The notes under the pieces were generated by a model. That model was not told the DNA's origin, did not search any database, and worked only from the letters and a program-made list of their open reading frames with translations. A stretch of DNA of 64,000 nt from Amoebophrya sp. A120. Its lineage: Eukaryota > Protista > Dinoflagellata. This document shows positions 43,022 through 43,227 of the stretch, one piece after another. Numbering within the stretch: position 1 is the stretch's first letter; each line of letters opens with the position of its first letter. Location of the stretch: the NCBI GenBank assembly GCA_905178155.1, contig CAJINV010000002.1, forward strand, positions 2,636,226 to 2,700,225. The letters are read 5' to 3'. The translations under genes and the position numbers were made by a program.

Positions 43022-43049
43022 TTTAGCATAGGGTATTCTGGCTACCCTG
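43022..43049 (+). promoter_or_regulatory. Upstream Pol III/snRNA promoter element (copy 1)
   Basis: tttagcatagggtattctggctaccctg, identical to the element upstream of U6; preceded by ttttgcccgaat in both cases. Confidence 0.8.
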
Positions 43050-43070
43050 CTTTAAGCTTTCCTGCAAGTT

Positions 43071-43227
43071 GTAAGAGTCGGTCCTCTCCAAGAGTACAGT
43101 CGGCAAGGGGGACACTGCGTAAGCGGTGGCTCCCTGGTCGATAATGATCTCCGCATCGCCTCAGGCTGGCAACAGAGCAGGGAGAAGGAGGCGCTGCGCT
43201 CAGTGGAAGGACAGCCGGCTCGTTTTT
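43071..43227 (+). ncRNA. SRP (7SL-type) RNA, S-domain only, apparently lacking the Alu domain
   Basis: Helix 8 motif CAGG-CTG-GCAA-CAG-AGCAG (43162-43180); helix 6 43100-43141 with GTAA tetraloop; 43075-43099 pairs with about 43194-43221; T5 terminator; shares the U6 promoter. Confidence 0.8.

Follow-up and report, generated by a model that had tools for sequence, protein, structure and literature searches.

Whether eukaryotes need Alu-mediated arrest in targeting to the ER is an old question, and the answers to it rest largely on cut-down particles studied in vitro and on lineages with a shortened Alu domain. Targeting works without Alu in the case of the bacterial 4.5S RNA, and the nuclease fragment SRP(S) is a known S-domain fragment comparable to the human 105-249 construct considered below. 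The SRP RNAs of dinoflagellates and Perkinsus are reportedly 260-300 nt long, and SRP9/14 are said not to have been found there, according to a 2013 paper in Protist; work of Rosenblad from 2004 reportedly may bear on other short protist forms. A locus of Amoebophrya sp. A120 raises the question of whether a natural eukaryotic SRP RNA gene can consist of the S domain alone. It lies in a 64-kb stretch of DNA (the window, that is, the whole sequence analyzed), upstream of a U6 gene, and was described in an initial annotation as a minimal, apparently Alu-less SRP RNA driven by the U6 promoter. The literature covered, which lies mostly outside the subscription journals, describes neither the SRP RNA of Amoebophrya nor any SRP RNA of a eukaryote that is as small as an S domain. 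The term SRP is absent from the text and one supplement (figures aside) of the Amoebophrya genome paper (PMC7789003) and is not mentioned in PMC12130899 or PMC12787238.

The locus is a eukaryote-type S domain of SRP RNA. On the + strand, positions 43074-43221 match the Rfam model Metazoa_SRP (RF00017, clan CL00003) over model positions 101-249 of 299 with a score of 97 bits (E 2.3e-23), above the gathering score of 70 bits; at the gathering level, this match and U6 are the only two RNAs in the window. A custom covariance model of 17 protist SRP genes (R2, 284 positions) matches the locus over model positions 87-233 with 132.7 bits, in an alignment that is gap-free across helix 6, helix 8 and the 5e/5f part of helix 5. 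Both matches end at the edge of the S domain, on both strands of the helix, and neither Rfam nor R2 yields a second SRP match in the window. The helix 8 signature, the GNRA-capped helix 6, the closing helix 5 and the TTTTT run that the initial annotation had read from the letters are all in place (Table 1), and the comparison with Rfam SRP models that it had proposed bears out the assignment. The symmetric loop of helix 8 is formed by CAGG (43162-43165) and AGCAG (43176-43180), and the tetraloop is GCAA (43169-43172). These helix 8 loops with the GNRA tetraloop, the GNAR tetraloop of helix 6 and a distal helix 5 with 5e/5f are traits of eukaryotic SRP RNA, and the roles of the 5e/5f region in relation to SRP68/72 have been described (PMC5224484). 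Standard pairs occupy 46 of the 47 model pairs, the predicted fold has a z score of -3.37 with none of 200 shuffles equally stable, and the closing helix (43075-43081 with 43215-43221) has pair probabilities of 0.86-1.0 in the 157-nt form.

Table 1. Coordinates of the SRP RNA locus and of the elements around it in the window.
Feature	Position	Strand	Remarks
Block I (TTTTTGCCCGAAT), -69 to -57, likely USE-type core of a type 3 promoter	43002..43014	+	putative function
Block II, 28 nt, -49 to -22, likely promoter element	43022..43049	+	repeated without mismatch ahead of U6
Predicted SRP RNA, S domain only, ~155 nt	43071..43227	+	from G43071 (or A43073) into T5; Rfam, R2
Closing helix, 5' strand	43075..43081	+	pairs with 43215-43221
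Helix 6, GUAA tetraloop 43119-43122, predicted SRP19 site	43101..43140	+	Rfam, R2
Helix 8: asymmetric loop, CAGG/AGCAG symmetric loop, GCAA tetraloop; predicted SRP54 and SRP19 sites	43148..43191	+	
Helix 5, 3' strand: 5f region (CAGU), 3-nt 5e bulge 43212-43214; predicted SRP68/72 sites	43200..43214	+	gap-free alignment to Rfam model and R2
T5, predicted primary Pol III terminator	43223..43227	+	one base past closing helix
86-nt GC-rich stretch and T6 (43314-43319): either a zone of read-through, a 3' domain or a small RNA of its own	43228..43319	+	
Blocks I and II as repeated ahead of the U6 gene	43549..43596	+	
U6 snRNA gene, T7 end, ruler for the start site	43619..43727	+	Rfam RF00026, 106 bits, 43620-43725, model 1-105/105

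The comparison set consisted of 110 metagenome loci retrieved by a pattern scan, none of them close to the window, and no relative with the same short form was found among them. Identity to 15 relatives amounts to 87-99 of 147 bases each (59-67%). Relative to each of these, 12-19 pairs are changed on both sides and still paired and 0-1 pairs are broken; the counts are biased towards the structure, which was itself built from the 15 relatives. Because pairs have been kept through double changes with respect to all 15 relatives, the S domain has been under selection. All 20 metagenome SRP genes that were tested (19 among those closest to the window and one distant, of the 110 loci) match the Rfam model over its full 1-299 positions, and the Rfam matches in metagenome SRP loci are 262-298 nt long. 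In a dozen of the loci (L015, L029, L043, L045, L048, L062, L078, L088, L095, L016, L028 and L105), which are dinoflagellate-like, the SRP gene is no more than a few hundred bases away from a U6, U2, U3, U4, U5, 5S or tRNA gene. The helix-8 pattern also occurs at two loci in viral contigs, one beside tRNA-like sequences and one apparently by chance; the former, in a 124-kb viral contig (L001, 601-619), is a eukaryote-like helix-8 word, CAGGCTGGCAACAGAGCAG, and perhaps represents a phage-borne small SRP RNA.

The start of the transcript can be approached through the neighboring U6 gene. Block II occurs in two mismatch-free copies in the window, at 43022 and 43569 (0 of 100 shuffles), which fits the earlier claim of a promoter common to the SRP RNA and U6. 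Block I, which the initial annotation had not mentioned (nor had it mentioned the 86-nt GC-rich stretch and T6 after T5), is identical before U6 at 43549-43561 and stands in the same register, 7 nt separating it from block II in both genes. Block II begins 49 nt before G43071 in the SRP gene and 50 nt before G43619 in U6, whose T7 terminator is at 43721-43727, and block I begins at -69 and -70, respectively. From the spacing of the shared block to the U6 start we infer an SRP RNA start near G43071. The start at this base proposed earlier on the same grounds thus agrees with the U6 spacing, with the proviso that A43073 fits too; 4 nt would be left 5' of the closing helix.

An upstream motif at a fixed distance from the start of snRNA-type genes is a trait of type 3 (USE) promoters, and it is present here. 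The core of block I, CCC at about -63, recalls the CCC-core USE words of other protists (PMC8287931), and no TATA box is found near -30, a position occupied by block II, which contains no TATA word. Since SRP and U6 genes in that part of the tree commonly have the same USE of a type 3 promoter (PMC8287931), an upstream element shared with U6 is normal for such SRP genes and is not the novelty of the locus. What is peculiar to this genome is the 28-nt length of the shared block, because the upstream regions of 10 SRP/snRNA pairs from 7 metagenome loci have at most 8 nt in common. No copy of block II was found in the 110 metagenome loci, the best candidate having 10 mismatches in 28 positions, and a pattern of the promoter occurs neither in viral contigs nor in prokaryote genomes (0 in each). 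Two more copies of the block (matches of 28 and 31 nt without any difference) were obtained in run X4 from a single contig of 887 nt; they are 153 nt apart and each is followed by other sequence, so they may mark two further small RNA genes, the first of at most ~80 nt. Over 42861-43610, a span that excludes the U6 gene, the X4 contig was the only one from that run and matches the promoter alone (43017-43049), X6 gave no contig, and X9 and X10, which carry the same species label but may not contain the organism, gave 0 reads; these outcomes speak neither for nor against expression.

Several weaker resemblances were noticed in the same region. Partial promoter words are found between the SRP gene and U6 (43320-43345 and 43486-43505), namely TGGCTACC at 43331 and GCCCGAA at 43493; the window holds 5 copies of the former (both strands) and 8 of the latter, and those in this spacer are possibly decayed promoter copies. 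The word CTTCGGGAGTAGCATCC at 43420-43438 is, by eye, like the end of the U6 5' stem-loop at 43626-43640 and possibly is a U6 remnant. Block II and the dinoflagellate spliced leader, also compared by eye, are alike in 8 of 9 bases around ATTYTGGCT. At a larger scale, the window has a GC content of 43-54% and contains dozens of dispersed inverted-repeat elements. In Amoebophrya sp. A120, the ends of introners are reported to consist of TAT, seven bases and then at least three A (PMC7789003). Ends of this type are found 23 times on the + strand and 17 times on the - strand of the window, in TAT...ATA inverted repeats such as families D1-D20; the spacer holding the SRP locus (42892-43914) contains none of the two words tested. 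Pfam matches at 2168-3157, 4926-11817, 15583-16851 and 58107-59084 comprise ankyrin repeats, a DUF747 membrane protein (split over two frames), a PAN domain and trypsin; among the 20 of 54 long frames that were compared with Pfam, those flanking the SRP-U6 spacer have no match.

The 3' end points to an equally short gene. T5 is located at +61 from CAGG. Where the closing helix ends, this terminator lies opposite the start predicted from U6; a T5 would be expected in the 5-nt slot with a chance of 0.015 for the window and of 0.06 for the spacer. The helix-8 pattern gave 114 matches, one of them the window itself; once 13 with insufficient flanking sequence and 9 duplicates were set aside, 91 controls for terminator and flanks were left. 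In 66 of these the first T4 after CAGG is at +95 to +135, and it comes before +95 in one only, a cut-off tandem copy. Furthermore, the flanks that would form the proximal helix 5 do not pair: the duplex has a z score of about -0.1 (-0.04, -0.11), with 135 of 300 shuffles equally stable, as against -0.9 to -5.6 in 20 metagenome controls and a median of -2.85 in the 91 controls (73 below -1.5, 8 at -0.5 or higher). With flank z scores near zero and T5 at +61, a proximal helix 5 that joins the 5' and 3' ends of an RNA of near 300 nt in total is absent. The Alu 5' domain (helices 2-4, UGU motif) has no match at E up to 10 in 42892-43914 when sought with R1, a model built from 18 loci and weak in that it recovers only 9 of 25 loci held out as a test (E <0.01); its place is occupied by block II, common to U6.

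A model match limited to the S domain is by itself no proof of a short gene, because R2 matches confined to model positions 87/88-230/232 also arise in 9 matches of distant SRP genes, most of which have pairing flanks; the argument therefore rests on the promoter, the terminator and the flanks. Given the promoter spacing, the position of the terminator, the non-pairing flanks and the lack of an Alu 5' match, the gene most likely encodes an SRP RNA without the Alu domain, in line with what had been proposed from the letters at the outset. The lineage as a whole may have lost the domain, or split it off, as the initial annotation went on to propose. Transcription could instead begin further upstream, so that the shared block would lie inside the RNA as a diverged Alu domain. 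The segment 43000-43075 folds well alone (z -3.71), and a CUGUG word at -144 from CAGG is near the UGU motif of the relatives at -146 to -160. However, this block also stands ahead of two other putative genes and of U6, a gene for which the Rfam match fixes the 5' end, and its U6 copy does not fold (z -0.26); moreover, pairing with the 3' flank is absent, neither R1 nor R2 matches the segment, and T5 would cut off the 3' strand, which makes an upstream start highly improbable.

The ends of an SRP RNA can move, as in Thermoproteus, where a permuted circular SRP RNA of 309 nt has its ends in helix 8 (PMC4731332). No pairing that would fit a permuted SRP RNA was found here by the flank duplex test or with R2. 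By eye, block II seems able to form a long helix with the downstream stretch, but shuffled sequences do equally well; this helix was rejected, and a circular permutation in register was rejected along with it.

The locus might also be a truncated duplicate or an accessory copy of an SRP RNA gene whose full-length, working version is elsewhere in the genome. Truncated tandem copies do occur in other eukaryotes (1 of the 91 controls), and a recent copy would inherit the compensatory changes of its parent. Such an origin calls for two deletions, each of them ending at the closing helix, that place T5 and an intact promoter in register, while 46 of 47 pairs and all motifs show no lesion and the 64-kb window is free of a second SRP match; on balance we think it unlikely. 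Tandem SRP RNA copies were seen in three metagenome loci, about 290 nt apart in L006 and L025 and about 580 nt apart in L040, and the second copy in L025 ends abruptly after the 5f region. Small RNA genes can be multicopy, given that U6 is reported at 9 loci in A120 (PMC7789003), which counts against taking the short gene as the sole form.

The most intricate alternatives concern the stretch behind T5. Its GC content is 0.60, similar to that of the S domain, as compared with 0.36-0.43 in three neighboring spacers. No Rfam family matches 43228-43319, and no counterpart of the stretch was found in the 110 metagenome loci. A tRNA identity was rejected, as ARAGORN finds 0 genes at default settings and Rfam gives no tRNA match at E up to 10; the valine call of relaxed ARAGORN is worthless, since 18-23 'genes' are called in 801 nt under these settings.

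Were T5 read through to the T6 at 43314, the product would be a 249-nt SRP RNA (43071-43319), close to the normal length of SRP RNA, in which a new 3' domain replaces Alu. In its fuller structural version, four hairpins would be inserted at 5e and closed by pairing of 43073-43079 with 43311-43317. The minimum-energy fold of the 249-nt form indeed pairs both ends and covers the start of T5 with an 11-pair hairpin, the gain over the separate parts is 7.9 kcal/mol (-2.1 +/- 2.4 in shuffles; 20 of 600 as good), the GC content is that of the S domain and unlike that of the neighboring spacers, and T5 is weaker than T6 for Pol III in yeast in vitro (bioRxiv 2021.08.27.457903). The total energy is nevertheless ordinary (59 of 600 shuffles), as is that of the stretch alone (368 of 600), the duplex over T5 is matched in 132 of 3000 shuffles, and the stretch has no Alu, tRNA or Rfam match. 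In addition, neither the conserved closing helix nor the 5e bulge survives in this fold, although both have standard pairs with respect to all relatives. A read-through RNA with a replaced Alu domain is accordingly a doubtful proposition, and the insertion of four hairpins at 5e is to be given equally little credence.

The Alu function could also be taken over by a second small RNA in the manner of trypanosome sRNA-76/85, encoded in 43228-43319 or by a look-alike behind another copy of the promoter. A hairpin at 43240-43256 has the loop GCAGU, complementary to ACUGC at 43265-43269, as in the loop-loop pairing of Alu; this pattern is found in 49 of 5000 shuffles and in 14 of 703 pieces of the window. 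When the stretch is aligned with the 30 letters behind one of the promoter copies in the X4 contig, 23 of 33 columns match, which is the best score in the window and is reached in 79 of 20000 shuffles, and a CUUACAG loop recalls tRNA-Val(UAC), sRNA-76 having been described as valine-tRNA-shaped (PMC8230904). These patterns were picked after looking and serve as leads only; 129 of 200 shuffled queries score as high as the X4 likeness somewhere in the window. The Alu-like and cloverleaf folds (-15.8 and -14.3 kcal/mol) are far above the minimum of -28.5 kcal/mol, the UGU motif is absent at the junction, no promoter copy precedes the stretch, and the relaxed ARAGORN call lends nothing to a valine-tRNA shape. 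A partner RNA of this kind is quite improbable. A broader formulation holds that the SRP RNA has been taken apart, with targeting performed by the 155-nt S-domain RNA and ribosome pausing transferred to a new kissing-loop domain whose coding sequence follows directly, a scenario for which we see only a slender chance. The kissing-loop domain would be supplied by read-through of T5, or it would be an RNA of its own that has a sister gene after another promoter copy, an arrangement with similarly poor prospects. If true, a eukaryotic SRP would have exchanged Alu for a substitute that can be switched.

The reading we favor, and consider probable although by no means certain, is that of an intact S-domain-only gene, transcribed by Pol III from a U6-type element into an RNA of ~155 nt that is likely the working and only SRP RNA of the cell, lacks Alu and serves targeting without an elongation pause. 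Pol III, positioned by the upstream element, would start at G43071 and terminate at T5 with the help of the adjacent closing helix, T6 at 43314 acting as a back-up; in yeast in vitro, structure beside a short T tract has been reported to improve Pol III release (bioRxiv 2021.08.27.457903). The RNA would then bind SRP19 through its two tetraloops, SRP54 through helix 8 and SRP68/72 through the 5e/5f region, and the particle would bring ribosomes to the ER with no pause mediated by Alu, SRP9/14 and elongation arrest presumably having been lost. A likely history is that a dinoflagellate-type gene of 280-290 nt lost both strands of the proximal helix 5 together with the Alu 5' domain, a loss that would follow once the Alu half had no protein partner.

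Comparison with known systems places this predicted RNA at the end of a series of reductions. It has the whole S domain, the distal helix 5 and helices 6 and 8 in common with the dinoflagellate-like 7SL RNAs of the metagenome loci, and a U6 neighbor in common with several of these loci and with the cluster of Karenia brevis (PMC7022241). It differs from metagenome SRP/snRNA pairs in the long upstream block described above, and from ordinary 7SL in its length (~155 nt, not 262-298 nt) and in the lack of both the Alu 5' domain with CUGU and the proximal helix 5. Bacterial 4.5S RNA is without helix 6, which is present at the locus.

Reduced Alu domains are reported from several lineages. In fungal SRP RNA, helices 3 and 4 are absent and UGUNR is kept (PMC4605306). 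SRP9/14 were not found in Giardia or Theileria, as stated in PMC4040695, and are reported missing in several protists (PMC4040695, PMC2800229, PMC5499648). The SRP RNA of Encephalitozoon, likewise an intracellular parasite, is also reduced and has no canonical Alu domain, and SRP9/14 are apparently absent there (PMC5499648, PMC8137916). It is ~60 nt shorter than the human RNA, with ends mapped by RACE, and retains an uncommon Alu remnant (PMC5499648), whereas the RNA predicted here, with ends deduced from the sequence, would be ~140 nt shorter than the human one and would have no remnant, but keeps the 5e/5f sites. Trypanosomatids have no SRP9/14, the function of their Alu domain is in question, and a tRNA-like partner, sRNA-76/sRNA-85, is present (PMC2800229). 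Their Alu domain is called 'completely missing' in one review (PMC8230904) and 'shortened' in PMC8137916; according to PMC2800229, trypanosome 7SL keeps a truncated Alu domain in which positions 26-42 pair with sRNA-85, whereas nothing 5' of the S domain remains at the Amoebophrya locus for pairing with a partner. On the best reading, the loss of Alu here is more complete than in microsporidia and trypanosomes, in which a shortened Alu domain is reported. The closest counterpart in extent is man-made: the human S-domain construct 105-249, of 145 nt, has nearly the same limits as the locus (model positions 101-249), binds SRP19, SRP68 and SRP72 and is known from a crystal structure (PMC5224484), whereas the locus would be its natural equivalent, a gene equipped with a promoter and a terminator.

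The 48-nt promoter signature provides a handle for seeking small RNAs still missing from this organism, for example U1, which the genome paper reports as not found in A25 or A120 (PMC7789003). As to the role of Alu in eukaryotes, the clearest example would be a natural gene that begins and ends where the S fragment of the laboratory does, with helix 6 and the 5e/5f region kept and zero Alu RNA.
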